From Myxococcota bacterium (lineage in GTDB: Bacteria; Myxococcota_A; UBA9160; PR03), in assembly GCA_041611735.1 (NCBI GenBank), contig JBFIML010000017.1, positions 386-64,385 of the forward strand: a stretch of 64,000 nucleotides of DNA, read 5' to 3'. Made by a program: the position numbers and the translations under genes. The notes below the pieces were generated by a model. The model did no database searches, was not told where the DNA came from, and saw only the letters and a program-made list of their open reading frames with translations. The stretch's first letter is position 1, and every line of letters starts with the position of its first letter. This document shows, piece by piece, positions 27,441 through 59,535 of this stretch.

Positions 27441-29588
27441 ATGAGCAAGCGAGCGAAAGCGGATCGCGAGGCCTGGCGCGCGCTGGCCCGCAAGGAGCTG
27501 CGCGGCCAGGACCCGGAGCAGCTGGCCTGGGAGACGCCCGAGGGGCTGCGCGTCGCGCCCCTCTACACCGCGAGCGACCTCGAGGCCGTCGAGTTCACCG
27601 ACACGCTGCCGGGACTGTGGCCCTACGTGCGCGGGCCGCGAGCCACCATGTACGCCAACCGGGCCTGGACCATCCGGCAGTACGGGGGCTTCTCCACCGC
27701 CGAGGAGACCAATGCCTTCTTCCGCCAGAACCTGGCCGCCGGCCAGCAGGGACTGTCGGTGGCCTTCGACCTGGCCACGCACCGGGGCTACGACTCGGAC
27801 CACCCGCGCGTGCTCGGCGACGTGGGCAAGGCGGGCGTCGCCATTGGCACCGTGGAGGACATGAAGCGCCTCTTCGAGGGGATCCCTCTCGACCAGGTGT
27901 CGGTCTCCATGACCATGAACGGGGCGGTGCTGCCGGTCCTGGCCTGCTTCGTGGTGGCGGGGGAGGAGCAGGGCGTCGCAGCGGAGAAGCTGGCCGGGAC
28001 GATCCAGAACGACATCCTGAAGGAGTTCATGGTCCGGAACACCTTCATCTATCCGCCCGAGCCGAGCATGCGCATCGTGGCGGACGTGATCGAGTACACC
28101 GCCCGCCACATGCCGCGCTTCAACTCGATCTCGATCAGCGGCTACCACATGCAGGAAGCCGGCGCGAACACGGTGCTCGAGCTGGCCTTCACCCTGGCCG
28201 ACGGCCTGGAGTACGTGCGGGCGGCGCTCTCCAAGGGGCTCGACGTGGACGCCTTCGCGCCGCGTCTCTCCTTCTTCTTCGCCATCGGCATGAACTTCTA
28301 CCTGGAGGTGGCGAAGCTGCGAGCCGCGCGCCGGCTGTGGGCGGAGCTCATGCGCGAGTTCGGGCCGAAGGATCCCGGCTCCAGCATGCTGCGCACCCAC
28401 TGCCAGACCTCGGGGGCGAGCCTCACCTACCAGGACCCGCTCAACAACGTGGTGCGCACCACCATCGAGGCGATGGCCGCCGTGTTCGGCGGGACCCAGT
28501 CGCTCCACACCAACGCCTACGACGAAGCGCTGGCCCTGCCCAGCGAGACGAGCGCCCGCATCGCCCGCAACACGCAGCTGATCCTCCAGGAGGAGACCGG
28601 GATCCCCCATGTGATCGACCCGTTCGGCGGCTCGTACTTCATGGAGTCCCTGACGGCGAGCGTGGCCGCGGCGGCCCGGGAGGTGATCGCGGAGGTGGAG
28701 AGCCTGGGGGGCATGGCCAAGGCCATCGAGGCGGGGATGCCGAAGCTGCGCATCGAGGAGTGCGCGGCGCGCCGGCAGGCGCGCATCGACCGCGGCGAGG
28801 ACGTGGTCGTGGGCGTGAACAAGTACCGGGTCGAGACCGGGGAAGAGGAGCTGGACCTGCTCGAGGTGGACAACACCGCCGTGCGAGAGGCGCAGGTGCG
28901 CCGCCTGGCGGAGGTGCGCGGGCGCCGGGACGCCGGGGCCGTGGAGAAGGCGCTGGGCCGCCTCGAGGCCATGGCGCGCGACGGCACCGGCAACCTGCTC
29001 GAGGGCACCATCGAGGCGGTGCGGGCGCGGGCCACGGTGGGCGAGGTGTCGGAGCGGCTCGAGCGGGTCCATGGTCGCCACCGGCCCGAGACCCGCACCA
29101 TTGCGGGGGTCTACGCAGGCGTGTCGGAAGGGGACGAGGAGTACGAGTCCGTGCGCGGGGAGGTGCAGCGCTTCGCCGAGAGCGAGGGGCGCCGGCCGCG
29201 CATCCTGGTGGTGAAGCTCGGGCAGGACGGGCACGACCGCGGCATGAAGGTGATCGCCACGGCCTTCGCGGACCTGGGCTTCGACGTGGACATCGGGCCG
29301 CTGTTCCAGATGCCCGAGGAGGCGGCCCGTCAGGCCATCGAGAACGACGTGCATGCGGTGGGCGTGTCCACCCAGGCGGGCGGCCACAAGACCCTGATCC
29401 CGCAGCTGGTGGAGGCGTTGCGGGCGGCGGGCGGGGAGGACGTGGCGGTGGTGGCCGGCGGCATCATCCCGCCCCGCGACCACGCCGGGCTGCGCAAGCA
29501 AGGCGTCGCGGCCGTGTTCGGACCGGGCACCCCGATCCCGAAGGCGGCCCGCGAGGTGCTCCAGGCGATCCGGACCCGGCACGCATGA
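27441..29588 (+). CDS. scpA: methylmalonyl-CoA mutase (B12-dependent)
   Basis: [34 protein letters not shown]12 motif. Confidence 0.95.
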
Positions 29589-32805: not shown

Positions 32806-33810
32806 ATGTTCGAGAACGTCGAGGCGGTGGGGAAGCAGCTGGCCGAGCAGGGCTACATCGCCAGCAAGAACATCGCCACCGTGGTCTACCTGGCCGCCCA
32901 GCTCGAGAAGCCGGTGCTGGTGGAGGGGCCGGCGGGCGTCGGCAAGACCGAGCTCGCCAAGGTGGTGGCCGGGGCCACCGGCCGGCCGCTGGTGCGTCTG
33001 CAGTGCTACGAGGGGCTCGACGAGGCCAAGGCCCTCTACGAGTGGGAGTACTCCAAGCAGCTCCTGTACACGCAGATCCTCAAGGAGAAGCTCGCCGAGG
33101 TGATGGCCGATGCCAGCAGCCTGCGGGACGCCGCCGACCGGGTGGGGGCCGAGGACAGCGTCTTCTTCTCGGAGCGCTTCATCGTCCCGCGTCCGCTGCT
33201 GCACGCCATCACGCGGGAGGAGCCCGCCGTGCTGCTGGTGGACGAGGTGGACAAGTCGGACCCCGAGTTCGAGGCGTTCTTGCTCGAGGTGCTCTCCGAC
33301 TTCCAGGTGACGGTGCCGGAGATCGGCACCGTGAAGGCCCGGCACCGGCCGCTCGTCTTCCTCACCTCCAATGACGCCCGGGAGATGAGCGACGCATTGA
33401 AGCGCCGCTGCCTGCACCTGTGGATCGACTTCCCCACCGAGGAGCTCGAGCTCGCCATCCTCGACAAGAAGGTGCCGGACATCGACCGGCGCCTGGCCAG
33501 CCAGGTCGTGCAGGCCATGCAGCGCCTGCGCCAGCTCGACCTCAAGAAGTCGCCGTCCATCAGCGAGACCATCGATTGGGCGCGGGCGCTGCTCACCCTG
33601 AACGCCTCGACCCTGGACGAAAGCGTGGTGCGCGACACCCTGAACGTGATCCTCAAGTACGAGGGAGACATCCGGAAGGCCCAGGCGGAGCTGGCCAAGC
33701 TGCTCGAGCGTCGGCCCGAGCCGGAGCCCGAAGCCGAGCCCGAGGCGTCCGCCGAGACCCCCGCCGCCCCGGTGGCGGCGGGCGCGCGCAAGAAGGGGAT
33801 CCTGCACTAG
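32806..33810 (+). CDS. MoxR-family AAA+ ATPase (CoxD-like)
   Basis: EGPAGVGKT, LQCYEGLD, YEWEY, DEVDK, LKRRCL, SISETIDW. Confidence 0.93.
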   Translation: MFENVEAVGKQLAEQGYIASKNIATVVYLAAQLEKPVLVEGPAGVGKTELAKVVAGATGRPLVRLQCYEGLDEAKALYEWEYSKQLLYTQILKEKLAEVMADASSLRDAADRVGAEDSVFFSERFIVPRPLLHAITREEPAVLLVDEVDKSDPEFEAFLLEVLSDFQVTVPEIGTVKARHRPLVFLTSNDAREMSDALKRRCLHLWIDFPTEELELAILDKKVPDIDRRLASQVVQAMQRLRQLDLKKSPSISETIDWARALLTLNASTLDESVVRDTLNVILKYEGDIRKAQAELAKLLERRPEPEPEAEPEASAETPAAPVAAGARKKGILH

Positions 33811-33824
33811 ATCGGCCCGCGCCC

Positions 33825-35246
33825 ATGCAGAAGAAGGTCATCGAATTCACGAACCTGCTGCGCCAGAGCGGCATCCGCGTCTCGGTCGCCGAGTCGATCG
33901 ACGCCTTCCGGGCGCTGGACGAGCTCTCCGTGGGCGATCGCGAGGTGTTCCGCAGCGCCCTGCGCACCACGCTGGTCAAGCGCAACGAGGACATCGCCGC
34001 CTACGACCAGATCTTCGACCTCTACTGGTCGGGCTTCTACGAAAACCTGCGCGAGAGCTTCGAGCGCGCCACCCGGGCGCTCGGCGAGCAGGGCATCGAC
34101 CTCGACGCCCTGCTGGAACGCATCCGCGAGCAGCTCGCCGCAGGCGAGCTGGAGGAGAGCGAGCTCTCGGACCTGGCCCGGGCCCTGCTCACGGCGGACC
34201 TGGCACGGCTCGAGCAGCTGATCCGGGAGGCGGCCCGGCAGGGTGGCGTCGCCCGCATCGAGAACCTGCTGCAGATCGGCTTCTTCAGCCGCCGAACCCT
34301 CGAGGCGCTCAACGCCGAGGGCGCCGCCCAGGAGCTGCGCGACCTGGCGGCCCGGCTGCGGGCCGGCGGCATGCCGGATGCCCAGGCCGACGCCCTCGGC
34401 CGCCTCGCCGACGAGTTCCTGGAAGCCTTGCGGCGCAGCGTGCGGGCTCTGACCGAACGCGAGCTCCAGACCCGCAACTTCGAGTATCTGGAGCGCTTCC
34501 GGCGCGAGTCGCTACTCGAGCGGAGCTTCTACAGCCTGACCGAGGACGAGGTGCGGCGTATGCGCGAGGTGGTGGCGCGCCTGGCGCAGCGCATCAAGAA
34601 CGTGCTCTCGATCCGCAAACGGCGGCTCAAGCGGGGCAAGCTGGATCTCCACGCCATGCTGCGTCGCAACATGGCGCACGGGGGGGTGCCCTTCGAGCTG
34701 ATCTTCAAGGATCGGCGCAAGGACCGGCCCAAGCTCCTGATCCTGTGCGACGTCTCCTCCTCCGTAGCCAACGTATCGCGCTTCATGCTCCAGTTCGTGT
34801 ACAGCCTCCAGGAGGCCTTCACGAAGATCCGCTCCTTCGTCTTCGTGGCAGAGCTCGGCGAGGTCACCCAGGTCTTCAAGGACCACGAGGTGAACGAGGC
34901 CATCGACCAGGCCCTCGAGGGGGGCGGGACGATCAATGTCTACACGCGCTCCAACTTCGGCTACGCCTTCCACAGCTTCTGGCTGAGCCACCTCTCGGCC
35001 GTCGACAACAAGACGACCGTGCTGATCCTGGGCGACGCGCGCAGCAACTACAACGACCCGAAGGCTTGGTGCCTGCGCGACATCCACGCCAAGGCCAAGA
35101 ACGTGGTCTGGCTGAACCCCGAGACGCCGAGCGCCTGGGGCTTCGGGGACAGCGTCATGAACCGCTATCTGCCGTACTGCGACGTGGCCGAGGAGTGCCG
35201 CAACCTCCGGCAGCTCTCCCAGATCGTCGACCGCCTGGTGCTCTGA
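33825..35246 (+). CDS. VWA-domain protein (CoxE-like)
   Basis: LRQSGIRVS N-terminus, CDVSSS MIDAS, GDARSNY, WLNPE, WGFGDS, CRNL. Confidence 0.92.
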   Translation: MQKKVIEFTNLLRQSGIRVSVAESIDAFRALDELSVGDREVFRSALRTTLVKRNEDIAAYDQIFDLYWSGFYENLRESFERATRALGEQGIDLDALLERIREQLAAGELEESELSDLARALLTADLARLEQLIREAARQGGVARIENLLQIGFFSRRTLEALNAEGAAQELRDLAARLRAGGMPDAQADALGRLADEFLEALRRSVRALTERELQTRNFEYLERFRRESLLERSFYSLTEDEVRRMREVVARLAQRIKNVLSIRKRRLKRGKLDLHAMLRRNMAHGGVPFELIFKDRRKDRPKLLILCDVSSSVANVSRFMLQFVYSLQEAFTKIRSFVFVAELGEVTQVFKDHEVNEAIDQALEGGGTINVYTRSNFGYAFHSFWLSHLSAVDNKTTVLILGDARSNYNDPKAWCLRDIHAKAKNVVWLNPETPSAWGFGDSVMNRYLPYCDVAEECRNLRQLSQIVDRLVL

Positions 35247-35251
35247 GGGGG

Positions 35252-35285
35252 AAAAAAGAACGCCCCGCCGGGGGGCGGGGCGTTC
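35252..35285 (-). terminator. intrinsic terminator facing the minus strand
   Basis: 12-bp stem GAACGCCCCGCC/GGCGGGGCGTTC with 4-nt loop; U6 tract only on the minus strand. Confidence 0.85.
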
Positions 35286-35445
35286 CACAGGGGGAGGGCG
35301 GTGGATAGATGATGGGGGGTGAGAGGTTGGACATTTCTTTTGGGAAATGTCTTATCCACCGCCGCTCCAAAACCGCCGTAGAAACCTTTTCTCGGGCTAG
35401 CGGAGCGCCGGTCGTCAGCCGCCTTTCGAACCCCCAGCCGACGAC
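35252..35445 (-). ncRNA. candidate structured small RNA (~194 nt), family not recognised
   Basis: Bounded by TTGACA/CATAAT promoter and terminator; three further stems, first with G-U pairs only on the minus strand; no ORF fits inside. Confidence 0.7.
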
Positions 35446-35451
35446 AGCCGG

Positions 35452-35481
35452 ATTATGCCCGGGCATGACAAAACTTGTCAA
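35452..35481 (-). promoter_or_regulatory. near-consensus sigma70 promoter of the candidate sRNA
   Basis: TTGACA (35481-35476)-N18-CATAAT (35457-35452). Confidence 0.75.
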
Positions 35482-35609
35482 ACACTATTTCGGGCCTGGG
35501 GCGGCGCCACCGCGCGGCGGAGCGGGGATGGTGGTTTCCCGGGGGGATGCGGCGCCTGGGGCCCCCTGAGCCCCCCGGTCGGGTACCGTTCGGCTCCCGG
35601 GAGGCCCGC

Positions 35610-37034
35610 GTGGAGCGATCCCGCCACTTCTTCATCCGCACCTTCGGGTGCCAGATGAACGTGCACGACTCCGAGAAGGTGGCGAACCTTCTGCATCATC
35701 TGGACTACCGCCCGGCCGGGGCGGCGGACGACGCGGACCTGCTGGTCGTCAACACCTGCTCGATCCGGGAGAAGGCCGAGCACCGCCTCTACAGCGACCT
35801 CGGCACCCTGCGGGCCTGGAAGGCGGGGCGTCCGGGCCGCCTGCTGGGCGTCGGAGGCTGCGTCGCCCAGCAGGAGGGCGACGGCATCCTGCGCCGCTTC
35901 CCCCAGGTGGACTTCGTCTTCGGCACCCACAACCTGCGCTGGCTGCCGGAGATCCTGGCCGCCGCCGAAGCCGGGGCGCGCCCGTCCCGCATCGAGGAGT
36001 CCCGCTCCCTGGAGCGCTTCGACCTGCCCGGGCGTCACCCCGCCTTCGCGGGGAGTCAGCCCGGCCGGGCCTACGTGACGGTGATGGAAGGCTGCGACCT
36101 GTTCTGCTCCTTCTGCATCGTGCCCCTCACCCGCGGACGCGAGATCAGCCGACCCGCGGCGGCGATCGTCCGCGAAGTCGAGGGCCTCGTGGCGCGCGGG
36201 GTGCGCGAGATCACCCTGCTCGGCCAGACGGTCAACGCCTACGGCCGTCACGACGCGCGCCGCGGTGGTACGGACGCGGCGGGGACGCTGCCCTTCGCCG
36301 CGCTGCTGCGGCGGCTCGACGCGGTCCCCGGCCTGCGCCGCCTGCGCTACACCAGTCCGCATCCGCTCTTCTTCGACGACGACCTGGTCGCCTGTCACGC
36401 CGAGCTTCGGTCGCTGTGTCCGCACGTGCACCTTCCGGCCCAGAGCGGCTCCGATGCGGTCCTGGCCCGCATGCGGCGCCGCTACCCGGCCGACCAGCTG
36501 CGCCGGGTGGCCGACCGGCTGCGCGCGGCGCGACCCGACGTGGCCCTCACCACCGACCTGATCGTGGGATTCCCGGGCGAGAGCGACGCCGACTTCCAGG
36601 CCACCCTCGCCCTGGTACGAGAGGTCGGCTTCGTGGACGCCTACAGCTTCAAGTTCTCGCCGCGCCCCGGCACCCGGGCGGCGGACCTGGCGGATCCCGT
36701 GCCGCCCTCCGTGTCCCAGGCGCGCCTGGAGGAGCTCCAGGCCCTCCAGCGTGGCCTCACCCTGGCGGCGCACCGGGCGCGGGTGGGAAGCACCACGGAG
36801 GTGCAGATCCACGGGCCGAGCCGCCAAGGATCGGGCCAGCTGACGGGGCGCGACCCCTACCACCGGGTCGTGAACCTGGCCGCCGGCCCGGCGCCGGCCC
36901 CGGCGCCCGGGGACTTCCTCCGGGTCCGGCTGGTGGAGGCCACCCCCCACTCCCTGATCGGCGCACCCGCCCAGCCGCCCCGTCCCCGCTCCTCGCCCGA
37001 AAGCGTTGAAGCCACGCCCGCTTTCGGCCGATAG
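35610..37034 (+). CDS. miaB: tRNA-2-methylthio-N6-isopentenyladenosine synthase
   Basis: TFGCQMNVHDSE, NTCSIREKAE, CDLFCSFC radical SAM motif, IVGFPGE, TRAM tail. Confidence 0.96.
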   Translation: MERSRHFFIRTFGCQMNVHDSEKVANLLHHLDYRPAGAADDADLLVVNTCSIREKAEHRLYSDLGTLRAWKAGRPGRLLGVGGCVAQQEGDGILRRFPQVDFVFGTHNLRWLPEILAAAEAGARPSRIEESRSLERFDLPGRHPAFAGSQPGRAYVTVMEGCDLFCSFCIVPLTRGREISRPAAAIVREVEGLVARGVREITLLGQTVNAYGRHDARRGGTDAAGTLPFAALLRRLDAVPGLRRLRYTSPHPLFFDDDLVACHAELRSLCPHVHLPAQSGSDAVLARMRRRYPADQLRRVADRLRAARPDVALTTDLIVGFPGESDADFQATLALVREVGFVDAYSFKFSPRPGTRAADLADPVPPSVSQARLEELQALQRGLTLAAHRARVGSTTEVQIHGPSRQGSGQLTGRDPYHRVVNLAAGPAPAPAPGDFLRVRLVEATPHSLIGAPAQPPRPRSSPESVEATPAFGR

Positions 37035-37151
37035 GGGACGCGACACGGGGCGTCCGCAGGGCGGGGGTCCATCCGCAACCGGCAACCCGGCGCGCAGCCG
37101 CCTCGAGCGGGCGGCGTTCCGGGCGTCGGACGCGGCGTGCGCGGAGGGGGG

Positions 37152-39005
37152 ATGGCCAGGGCCCGGATCCTCGCGATCGACGACCAGCGCTACTTCCGCA
37201 GCTTCGTGGAGGATCTGCTCAGCGCGGAAGGCTTCTCGGTGAGCACGGCCACGAGCGCCGACGAAGCGCTGCATCTGCTCGAGCGCGAACGCTTCGACGT
37301 GGTGCTCACGGATCTCGTCATGCCCGGGATGGCCGGCGGCGAGTTCGTGGAGCGCGTGAAGGAGAGCTGGCCCGAGCAGGACGTGATCGTGGTGACCGGG
37401 GTCGGCGACGTGCGCACCGCCGTGGACGCCATGCGCCGGGGAGCCACCGACTACGTGCTCAAGCCGGTGGATCGAACCGAGCTGACGCGCGCCCTGGAGG
37501 CGATCCTGCAACGGCGACGCCTGCGCCAGGAGCGCGGCCGGCTGCTGGCGGAGAACCTCGAGTATCTCGGCGCGCTCTCCATCTACGAGCGCGCGCTCGG
37601 CTTCCTCTCGACGCTCTCCCTGGAGCCACTCGGGGATCGCGTGGTCGAGGGCCTGTGTCTCGAGACGCACGCCCAGGGCGGTGTGATCTGGCTGGCCCGG
37701 GCCGAGGATCCGGAGCGCTGCCGGCTCGTGGCGGCGCGCGGCCTGGTGCGGGTGGAGCAGGAGCCCGAGGAGATCGATCTCGAGCGCCTGCCTCCCGCGC
37801 TCGAGCCATTGCGCACACCCGACGCCGCCCCCTTCGAGGCCGCCCCCGACGGCGCCACCAGTACCGCGGGTGAGGGCGCGGCCCTCTTCGTGCCCCTGCG
37901 TCATGCGGGGCTGCTGCTCGGGTTCGCCCGCCTCACGGACAAGCTCGCCGGCGCCACCTTCGACGCCCGCGACCGGGCGGTGGCGGAGCGCCTGGCCGAG
38001 CCCGCGGCCATCGCGGCGGCCAACGCCCGCCGCCATCGGGCACTGGAGAAGCGAACCTTCCGGGACCCGACCACCAAGGCCTACACCTGGGCCTACTTCG
38101 AGGACGTGCTGCGCAACGAGATCGAGAAGGCGAGCCGCTTCGCCCGCGGACTCTCGCTCCTGCACCTGGAGCTGGAGGGGCTGTCGACCTTGCGTCCCCG
38201 CTTCGCGGACGCCGCGCTCGCCCGCTGGCTGGAGACTCTGATCGGACGTCTGGTCTCGTTGCTGCGCGCCTCGGACCTGCTGGCCCAGGAGAGCGAGAGC
38301 CGCTACGCGCTGCTGCTGCCCGAGACGGACGCGATCGGCGCCGCGGTGCTCAAGCGCCGCCTGCGCGACGTGCTGCTCCAGAGCGAGCTGCTCCGCCCGG
38401 GCCGCGGCGAGGAGCCCATCGGCCTGCGTCTCGCCACCGCCACCTACCCCGTGGATGGCACCCAGCCGGAGGCCCTGGAGCGGACCCTGACGGCGCGGCT
38501 CGCTGCCGACCGCCACGGCCGCATCGAGCGCCTGGGCCTGGAGGGACGCTCCTTCTCCGAGGCCCTCGAGACGCTCGCCGGCGAGGGAGCGCCACTGCCG
38601 GTGGACGCGGTGGAGCAGATCTTCCGCTTCGTGCTCGACGACGCGGATCGCCGGGCCCGCGAGCGCGGAGTCCTGTGCGTGGCGCCGGGGGCCACCCGCC
38701 TCGGGCTGGTGCGCGACGCCTTGGCCCGCTTCGATCCGGCCAGCACGCGGACCGAGCTGGTGCTGGTGGGGGAGGGGGCCCTGGATGCCCTGGCGGGCAC
38801 CGCGGTGGCGTGCGTGTCGCCGCGACGGGCGCGCACCGAGCGGCCCTTCCTGGTCTACTACGCCGAGGGCCCCGCCTACGCCCTGGTCGCGGACCCGGAG
38901 CCGAGCGGGCCCGAGGTGCGCGTGTTCCACGACTCGGACCGGGTGCTGGTCGAGCACCTGGCCTTCCAGCTCCAGCGGGATCTCGGCATCCCGGTGGGGC
39001 GGTAG
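37152..39005 (+). CDS. response regulator: REC-GAF-degenerate GGDEF-uncharacterised C-domain
   Basis: Intact receiver (IDD, LTDLVMP, LKP); GAF-like segment; RDPTT..Y start of GGDEF fold with RASDLLAQESESRY in place of RxxD...GGDEF. Confidence 0.85.
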   Translation: MARARILAIDDQRYFRSFVEDLLSAEGFSVSTATSADEALHLLERERFDVVLTDLVMPGMAGGEFVERVKESWPEQDVIVVTGVGDVRTAVDAMRRGATDYVLKPVDRTELTRALEAILQRRRLRQERGRLLAENLEYLGALSIYERALGFLSTLSLEPLGDRVVEGLCLETHAQGGVIWLARAEDPERCRLVAARGLVRVEQEPEEIDLERLPPALEPLRTPDAAPFEAAPDGATSTAGEGAALFVPLRHAGLLLGFARLTDKLAGATFDARDRAVAERLAEPAAIAAANARRHRALEKRTFRDPTTKAYTWAYFEDVLRNEIEKASRFARGLSLLHLELEGLSTLRPRFADAALARWLETLIGRLVSLLRASDLLAQESESRYALLLPETDAIGAAVLKRRLRDVLLQSELLRPGRGEEPIGLRLATATYPVDGTQPEALERTLTARLAADRHGRIERLGLEGRSFSEALETLAGEGAPLPVDAVEQIFRFVLDDADRRARERGVLCVAPGATRLGLVRDALARFDPASTRTELVLVGEGALDALAGTAVACVSPRRARTERPFLVYYAEGPAYALVADPEPSGPEVRVFHDSDRVLVEHLAFQLQRDLGIPVGR

Positions 39006-48554: not shown

Positions 48555-48629
48555 AGGCACGTAGCTCAGTGGGAGAGCACCACCTTGACACGGTGGGGGT
48601 CGGCGGTTCAATCCCGCCCGTGCCTACCA
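48555..48629 (+). tRNA. tRNA-Val(GAC)
   Basis: Acceptor AGGCACG/CGTGCCT, anticodon arm CCACC-TTGACAC-GGTGG, GGTTCAATCC T-loop, encoded CCA. Confidence 0.97.
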
Positions 48630-59458: not shown

Positions 59459-59535
59459 CGGGCCGTAGCGCAGCTTGGTAGCGCGCCTGAATGGGGTTCA
59501 GGAGGTCGCGAGTTCAAATCTCGCCGGCCCGACCA
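59459..59535 (+). tRNA. tRNA-Pro(GGG)
   Basis: Acceptor CGGGCCG/CGGCCCG, anticodon arm CCTGA-ATGGGGT-TCAGG, GTTCAAATC, encoded CCA. Confidence 0.96.

Follow-up and report, generated by a model that had tools for sequence, protein, structure and literature searches.

A conserved small RNA gene beside miaB in one class of Myxococcota, with predicted pairing to the ribosome-binding sites of ftsA and ftsZ

The stretch of DNA analysed here (the window) comprises 64,000 nucleotides (nt) of a Myxococcota genome (GenBank assembly GCA_041611735.1, contig JBFIML010000017.1, positions 386 to 64,385), and our subject is a predicted small RNA (sRNA) gene on its minus strand, in the interval between two genes of the plus strand. 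One of these, at 33420-35246, encodes a VWA_CoxE protein; the other is a miaB-type radical-SAM methylthiotransferase gene with UPF0004, Radical_SAM and TRAM domains, the frame of which is open from 35475 to 37034. The sRNA gene overlaps neither coding region and ends at a terminator of its own before it would reach the VWA stop codon; in the list of open reading frames (ORFs), no gene follows it on the minus strand. A first-pass annotation of the window had proposed a trans-acting sRNA whose exposed C-rich tracts could pair with G-rich Shine-Dalgarno regions. Comparative analysis now indicates that the sRNA represents a previously undescribed family, restricted to a single, mostly uncultured class of Myxococcota, and that its unpaired seed would pair with the ribosome-binding sites of the cell division genes ftsA and ftsZ.

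A consensus scan of 34500-36500 found a single promoter-like site, that of the sRNA: TTGACA-N18-CATAAT (35481-35452, minus) agrees with the consensus at 11 of 12 positions, where shuffled sequences lead one to expect 0.1 sites. The predicted start of transcription was placed at 35445 by its spacing from the -10 box, which lies about 7 nt upstream. The promoter and the plus-strand orientation of both flanking genes are as the first-pass annotation had described them, and so are the terminator and its U6 tract; the terminator stem, given there as 12 bp, has 13 pairs by our count. Of 125 distinct homologues, 109 are preceded by a promoter pattern (TTGACN, 16-19 nt, NATA[ACT]T), at a distance from -10 box to core of about 1 to 167 nt (median 45). 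Because this distance varies, the minimal RNA would be ~125 nt long, and the 194-nt form in our genome would carry an extra 5' hairpin. A strong sigma-70-type promoter would thus drive an RNA of ~125-195 nt that ends at an intrinsic terminator. A crude T-tract pattern matched a U-rich tail in 65 of the 125 homologues, from which we draw no claim. At one locus (L021, genome G023) short tandem AAGATYC-like units stand directly before the core, replacing the usual promoter and 5' region.

The 194-nt RNA (35445-35252) folds at -92.5 kcal/mol (z = -4.75), and none of 200 shuffled sequences was as stable. Four elements described earlier are all present in this predicted fold: stem 1, stem 3, an inner hairpin GACAUUUC/GAAAUGUC and an unpaired C-rich bulge, here a 22-mer. 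The proposed stem 2 (GCUCC/GGAGC), on the other hand, forms in neither the minimum-energy nor the centroid structure, its GGAG pairing instead with a conserved CUCC located 3' of stem 3. Nor does the three-stem, 194-nt architecture hold as the functional unit, because conservation is limited to the 3' ~120 nt: the 5' region that holds stems 1 and 2 is conserved among relatives in neither sequence nor length. The conserved unit consists of stem 3 with its contents, the linker and the terminator, at about 35373-35252 (Table 1). In the folding model, a long helix (P1) keeps an asymmetric internal loop open. The loop comprises a short hairpin (P2) and the unpaired 22-nt C-rich tract, which is the most conserved part of the RNA.

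Table 1. Features of the predicted sRNA gene, in coordinates of the window.
Feature	Position	Strand	Basis or remark
Predicted whole sRNA, ~194 nt	35252..35445	-	predicted +1 G (35445) to end of U-tract
-35 hexamer TTGACA	35476..35481	-	consensus scan; GTTTGACA kept in relatives' alignment
-10 hexamer CATAAT, spacer 18 nt	35452..35457	-	relatives keep CATAAT or CATACT
Lineage-specific 5' extension	35374..35445	-	stem 1 (35445-35411) and 5' half of stem 2; unalignable among relatives
P1, 5' strand: GGAG, bulged C, then GGCGGUGGAUA	35353..35368	-	fold and covariation
P2 hairpin: GACAUUUC, loop CCAAAA, GAAAUGUC	35330..35351	-	fold and covariation
Single-stranded seed CAACCUCUCACCCCCCAUCAUC, 22 nt	35308..35329	-	unpaired in minimum-energy and centroid folds
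Invariant 16-mer AACCUCUCACCCCCCA within seed	35328-35313	-	unchanged in members found by covariance model
13-mer complementary to ftsA, ftsZ and pcm ribosome-binding sites	35326-35314	-	genome-wide complement scan
P1, 3' strand: UAUCCACCGCC then CUCC	35293..35307	-	fold and covariation
C-rich linker, P1 to terminator	35287..35292	-	C-rich but variable in sequence among relatives
Rho-independent terminator	35252..35286	-	13-pair stem 35286-35257, 10 G-C pairs, then U6

A BLAST search with 251 nt of the locus, run on 41 genomes of the same order (40 relatives and our own), gave matches in 35 of them; the matches were confined to query positions ~117-235, equivalent to ~35374-35256 of the window, at 71-98% identity. 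Thirty aligned loci vary in the sequence and length of the 5' part and keep the promoter hexamers, the core and the GC-rich terminator hairpin, whose counterpart reads ACGCCCCG...CGGGGCGU. An exact scan for a motif of 21 specified bases, with one genome per species, returned at least 119 loci; among the matches listed, nearly all are metagenome-assembled genomes labelled Myxococcota, Myxococcales or Deltaproteobacteria, and some bear other labels. As these loci were chosen by the motif, they are no proof that it is invariant. A covariance model (R1), with 125 distinct cores and 23 pairs, does not require the motif, and the 16-mer is unchanged in the divergent members that it found. Our genome has one strong R1 match (99.3 bits, followed by one of 20.8 bits with E = 0.17), as expected of a single-copy gene.

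In an even sample of the phylum R1 matched 27 of 151 genomes, our own included: 22 of the 23 other genomes of the same order, all four that represent a second family of this class, and none of the 123 other Myxococcota. A miaB orthologue is divergent from the sRNA at 54 of 54 loci (46 distinct genomes by tally), and the VWA gene is convergent with it at 44 of the 54. Five same-order genomes that BLAST had missed were also without a match to R1. Absence of the sRNA is not established for four genomes, because the miaB locus was not recovered there: in G030 the miaB contig stops inside the gene, G014 and G016 have miaB matches of paralogue level only (37% identity), and in G039 none was found.

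Covariation supports the structure. Across a MAFFT alignment 93.3% of cells pair in P1 and P2, compared with 40.6-58.1% when the 3' partners are slid, and seven pairs show two-sided changes. In an alignment fitted to the model (100 matches, 95 distinct), and so biased towards structure, the figures are 95.7% and 44.1-55.8%, compensatory changes occur in 10 of 23 pairs, and 0 of 500 shuffles attain any of five measures. At one P1 pair, for example, 80 sequences have U-A, 13 have C-G and one has A-U, and in one relative (L174) the P2 stem is entirely swapped with the flanking motif intact. G-U pairs are frequent (U-A 41 / U-G 38; A-U 36 / G-U 32; G-C 73 / G-U 22) and, since they would be A-C mismatches on the plus strand, they fix the RNA on the minus strand together with the orientation of promoter and terminator. 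This strand argument had been made from our window, and it extends across the homologues; the covariation check advised for homologues upstream of miaB likewise yielded covarying P1 and P2 pairs.

To which messages might the exposed strand pair? Our genome (4.09 Mb, 72.3% GC) was scanned for complements of a 23-nt strand. The 13-nt complement (GGGGGGUGAGAGG / GGGGGGTGAGAGG) has four genomic copies, one of which is the sRNA gene itself, and the other three end 0-2 nt before the ATG of ftsA, ftsZ and pcm. Composition-matched shuffled 13-mers occurred 0.26 times on average, and 5 of 1000 reached four occurrences. The three ORFs encode an FtsA of 412 amino acids (aa) with FtsA and SHS2 domains, an FtsZ of 457 aa with Tubulin and FtsZ_C domains, whose gene lies immediately downstream of ftsA, and a Pcm of 219 aa with a PCMT domain. 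At ftsZ the sRNA would form 13-14 contiguous pairs, with a predicted energy of -33.2 kcal/mol; the best duplex energy after the gene itself, -36.8 kcal/mol, belongs to an imperfect site on contig C74 with 9 contiguous pairs.

The sequence GGGGGGTGA occurs 40 times in our genome (both strands), as against 4491 times for AGGAGG, and is therefore not the usual ribosome-binding site. Among 3646 candidate start regions, 140 (3.8%) have a G6 run within 30 nt and five have GGGGGGUGA. A rough ranking of these regions placed ftsZ and pcm in the top five; ftsA was missed because its frame is open far upstream and the rule covered the first 25 candidate starts only. The fourth-ranked site, a possible further target, precedes a 548-aa TPR-repeat protein with a signal-peptide-like N-terminus (contig C35, 21,950-23,596; L347), and could form 12 contiguous pairs with the 3' half of the seed (-33 kcal/mol). 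Two near-identical stretches that start with G7 and then TGAAGGAGAGCGG, on contigs C24 (plus, ~63,506) and C36 (minus, ~12,712), resemble a repeated or paralogous element.

Our genome is without an assembled rRNA end, and the 3' end of 16S rRNA was read in three in-group relatives, all of which end in the canonical GGAUCACCUCCUUUCU. Part of the seed, UCACCCCCC, resembles the anti-Shine-Dalgarno tail UCACCUCCU; the two differ at two positions, where the sRNA has C and 16S has U. Because the 16S tail is canonical, GGGGGGUGA amounts to an extended Shine-Dalgarno sequence in which two A's have become G's: with 16S it makes two G-U wobbles, and with UCACCCCCC of the sRNA it is Watson-Crick throughout. 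Past the UGA, a complement of 16S would run UC and a complement of the sRNA GAGAGG; several ftsA and ftsZ sites follow the sRNA.

These sites were compared between the in-group and an outgroup of genomes with no sRNA match, with L209 and L210 excluded (a partial gene and a paralogue) and start codons picked by a heuristic, namely pairing to the canonical 16S tail, that was the same for both groups. A G6 run is present at the ftsZ site in 22 of 28 in-group and 0 of 30 outgroup loci, and at the ftsA site in 22/29 and 0/24; for GGGGGGUGA the corresponding counts are 15/28 and 0/30 at ftsZ, and 9/29 and 0/24 at ftsA. Median duplex energies in the in-group are -21.9 kcal/mol at ftsZ and -20.0 kcal/mol at ftsA, compared with -10.7 and -11.6 kcal/mol in the outgroup, where the sites are AGGAGG- or GGAGG-like. 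For pcm, a G6 run precedes the projected start at 11 of 21 orthologue-level loci, nine paralogue-level loci having been dropped.

Searched against 30 in-group genomes, the 11-mer GGGGGTGAGAG gave 99 matches, and a reversed control 47. The sRNA gene itself accounts for 28, and 71 lie elsewhere. Ten of the latter are at ftsA or ftsZ starts in six genomes of five families (at both genes in G000, G026, G020 and G036, and at ftsZ in G176 and G025), seven are in the 3' untranslated region (3'UTR) of nrdJ, and one is at pcm. Forty of the remaining matches were fetched; seven of the forty precede an ORF of at least 100 codons, and six of the forty are one conserved element, the nrdJ hairpin described below.

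Diverged forms of the sRNA suggest that the seed and its sites change together. In G171 the seed has C7. The seed of G032 is changed, with C6 kept and different flanks, and the ftsA and ftsZ sites of that genome are GGAGG-like. G024, which belongs to the same family, is 99% complete and R1-negative; an RNA-like element, spotted by eye, lies there upstream of miaB at the syntenic place (L378), with a P1 that is wholly re-written yet paired (14 bp), a small hairpin, and a single strand with C9. When three seeds were set against the ftsA and ftsZ sites of three genomes in a 3 x 6 table of duplex energies, the cognate seed was best in all six rows, although the seeds are of unequal length and the rows are not independent. 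For G024 and G032, this is suggestive of joint change in seed and sites.

The nrdJ element is a G-rich hairpin, with (U)GGGGGG(G)UGAGAG as its loop and 3' stem, that begins within ~60 nt of the stop codon and is followed by an intrinsic terminator. The gene, nrdJ-like and for a class II ribonucleotide reductase, was named from its sequence (~1000 aa, cysteine-rich C-terminus). Our genome has the hairpin, there with a G7 loop (contig C10, about 27,940-28,090), as do 11 of the 28 in-group loci with a covered C-terminus (L284-L286, L289, L290, L292, L294, L297, L303, L304 and L312), at predicted duplex energies of -24 to -32 kcal/mol. Two further in-group loci have weaker G-runs. It was found at neither of two covered loci of the sister family and at none of 26 covered outgroup loci, where the best energy was -22.9 kcal/mol, and an Rfam search of the element gave nothing credible. 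The hairpin is possibly an additional target of the sRNA or a sponge for it, and could itself be a 3'UTR-derived RNA.

The locus has the features by which trans-acting base-pairing sRNAs are recognised: its own promoter, an intrinsic terminator, a non-coding body of conserved structure, and a seed that is both unpaired and conserved and whose complementary sites in mRNAs are conserved too. In our judgement it is probably (at a probability of about 0.6) a trans-acting sRNA whose seed imitates the anti-Shine-Dalgarno sequence and would occlude rare G6UGA-type sites, above all those of ftsA and ftsZ. Sites of the form GGGGGG(UGA)(GAGAGG) would pair with 16S via G-U wobbles only, but would form 9-14 nt of Watson-Crick duplex with the sRNA; the sRNA would occupy such ribosome-binding sites and block the loading of ribosomes, presumably in an Hfq-independent manner. 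The top predicted targets are ftsA and ftsZ, followed by pcm, with the nrdJ 3'UTR hairpin loop as a further conserved partner, whether target or sponge. The idea of a trans-acting sRNA is thus supported by the promoters of the homologues, the covariation, the G-U strand signal and the complementary sites, and the more particular idea that its C-rich tract meets G-rich Shine-Dalgarno regions by the exact 13-nt complements at three start codons.

Several points weigh against this interpretation. The target list is drawn from complementarity and conservation, and the start codons behind it come from our own heuristic, though the same rule served both groups. Since sRNA and G-run sites go back to essentially a single evolutionary origin, their co-occurrence counts as few independent events, and selection for efficient translation could by itself suffice to maintain G-rich sites. 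Long pairing is found in only part of the clade: GGGGGGUGA is missing from nearly half of the 28 in-group ftsZ sites, and 9/28 have at least GGGGGUGAG; most of the other 11-mer matches precede no gene, and the nrdJ hairpin is found in only about 12 of 29 in-group genomes. The primary sequence of P1 is conserved beyond the needs of a scaffold and therefore hints at a protein partner, and Hfq was not found in our genome, which is 95% complete. As for RNA, 22 public runs contain part of the stretch. Most are DNA metagenomes, five of the runs may derive from the source sample, and a single run is an RNA library. When three runs were compared at 80% likeness, relatives in this metatranscriptome accounted for three short contigs (200-379 nt) that span 35275-35369, and further contigs cover the end of the adjacent VWA gene; as the contigs show neither strand nor ends, they are a weak hint of transcription only.

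A wider proposal builds on the occlusion of ftsA and ftsZ, and we put it forward tentatively, as a reading that we hold to be unlikely: a class-wide, post-transcriptional cell-cycle circuit with a 'private' Shine-Dalgarno code. The G6UGA sites of ftsA, ftsZ and pcm would be read by 16S through wobbles and by the sRNA perfectly, and synthesis of the division proteins would be gated by the sRNA. Set free with the nrdJ 3'UTR, the G-rich hairpin would act as a sponge, such that expression of deoxynucleotide (dNTP) synthesis licenses division, and the sRNA and its sites would co-evolve, as G024 and G032 may illustrate.

Alternatively, the RNA may bind or sequester a protein, with its C-rich strand and P1 as the platform for a KH- or S1-type binder or for Rho, and its complementarity to start sites incidental or secondary. 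P1 and the 16-nt single strand are near-invariant across the class and longer than most sRNA seeds, the near-consensus promoter suggests an abundant RNA, and the failure to find Hfq would suit such a role. We nevertheless consider it distinctly unlikely, given that exact 13-nt complements stand at three start codons, those of ftsA, ftsZ and pcm, that G-run sites at these genes are restricted to the clade, and that seed and sites appear to shift together in G024 and G032; the neighbours, miaB and the VWA gene, offer no adjacent candidate for the protein.

The resemblance of UCACCCCCC to the 16S tail, confirmed in relatives, could also mean that the RNA is a general mimic of the anti-Shine-Dalgarno sequence that damps translation globally or buffers free Shine-Dalgarno sequences, and many G-rich start regions do have predicted duplexes of -25 to -33 kcal/mol. 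That the sites which match best are rare (40 per genome for GGGGGGTGA, and 5 of 3646 starts for GGGGGGUGA), typical sites being AGGAGG-like, makes this improbable. The CCUCUC of the seed, which is not anti-Shine-Dalgarno, is also invariant, and several families have ftsA and ftsZ sites that match it.

Control in cis has little to recommend it beyond the constancy of the neighbourhood, in which miaB adjoins at every one of the 54 loci and the VWA gene at most of them. Such an element might act on the divergent miaB, by promoter interference or a shared region, or on the 3' end of the convergent VWA gene. What is conserved, however, is the body of the RNA, far from miaB, and not the region between promoters; the terminator precedes the VWA stop codon, neither coding region is overlapped, and the covariation bespeaks selection on RNA structure, so that we hold this reading to be very improbable. 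Further out, an AAA_5 (MoxR/CoxD-like) ATPase gene (32806-33810, plus) precedes the VWA_CoxE gene, and the ORF downstream of miaB (37137-39005, plus) has response-regulator receiver, GAF and GGDEF domains, as in a diguanylate-cyclase-type regulator.

Searches of Rfam 15 were consistent with a new family. At gathering score the whole window yielded two tRNA genes (48555-48626 and 59459-59532, both plus) and nothing at the sRNA, and at E <= 10 the region 35000-35800 gave 14 weak matches, all far below gathering scores, the best of which are driven by the terminator. The 6C, DicF and 6S models did not match the sRNA in either search. The 6S RNA gene (RF00013) of our genome is on another contig (C13, 49441-49619; L178; 53 bits against a cut-off of 46.4), and a 6S identity was rejected on that ground. 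The Rfam check recommended by the first-pass annotation thus came out as it had anticipated in its view that this is not a housekeeping RNA. We give next to no probability to the idea that the element is no RNA gene of its own and is instead a small protein-coding ORF, a riboswitch or leader, or 6S or another known housekeeping RNA: a GTG-initiated ORF (35359-35165, minus) does overlap it and the sub-threshold Rfam matches exist, but indels of 1-2 nt in the P2 loop of relatives, not being multiples of three, break any frame and led us to reject a coding reading, and no minus-strand gene lies downstream to be led.

To our knowledge, very few regulatory RNAs have been described in Myxococcota, and none in the uncultured marine and sediment lineages. 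A text search of one library of papers found no publication that joins Myxococcota, small RNA and ftsZ, and searches with motif strings returned only papers on eukaryotes, eukaryotic viruses or primers, as judged by title. The RNA described here is single-copy, class-wide and fixed at one locus, and it comes with a concrete set of predicted targets; the covariance model R1 could seed a new Rfam family. If the interpretation is correct, ftsA and ftsZ would both be under direct RNA control, division could be tied to ribonucleotide reductase, and an sRNA and its sites would provide a natural case of a pairing code that has evolved to differ from that of 16S at wobble positions.

Among known sRNAs, 6C of the Actinobacteria (6C/B11 in M. 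tuberculosis) offers close parallels to the predicted mode of action: its C-rich loops pair with G-rich ribosome-binding sites, such as AGGGGGG at panD, with no need for Hfq or ProQ, it is linked to DNA replication (dnaB), its overexpression elongates cells, and ftsZ served as a non-target control (PMC6486639). Both RNAs belong to high-GC hosts and present a C-rich single strand on a stable scaffold; the G-rich sites of 6C parallel the predicted G6 sites, its chaperone independence the failure to find Hfq here, and its link to replication and elongation the predicted partners ftsA, ftsZ and nrdJ. They differ in that 6C displays its C-runs in hairpin loops, whereas the one C6 run of our sRNA is part of an unpaired internal strand that sits inside a closing helix of 15 bp, and also in phylum, in the lack of an Rfam 6C match, and in that ftsZ and ftsA are here the top predicted targets. 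DicF of E. coli pairs with the ribosome-binding site of ftsZ mRNA and blocks FtsZ synthesis and cell division; it is sporadic among strains and Hfq-dependent. Our computational prediction of complementarity to the ftsZ ribosome-binding site is similar. DicF is carried on a defective prophage, as its description in E. coli has it (PMC5069750), whereas the sRNA is chromosomal, class-wide and fixed between the VWA gene and miaB (with miaB adjacent at 54/54 loci), does not match the Rfam DicF model, occurs in a genome in which Hfq was not found, and also matches ftsA. If the predictions are correct, it would be a chromosomally fixed, ancient counterpart of DicF.

The anti-Shine-Dalgarno-like seed is shared with a broader set of RNAs. 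In RsaE/RoxS of the Firmicutes, the CCUCCUCCC-motif sRNAs of alpha-proteobacteria and RepG of Helicobacter, C- or C/U-rich unpaired motifs pair with G-rich Shine-Dalgarno sequences or G-repeats. The present sRNA differs from these in family, scaffold, taxon and regulon, has no Rfam match to them, and has a single invariant 16-nt seed that reaches past its anti-Shine-Dalgarno-like part. By analogy, it would act much as 6C or DicF does, yet it lacks the model match of either family, the hairpin-loop C-runs of 6C and the prophage location of DicF.

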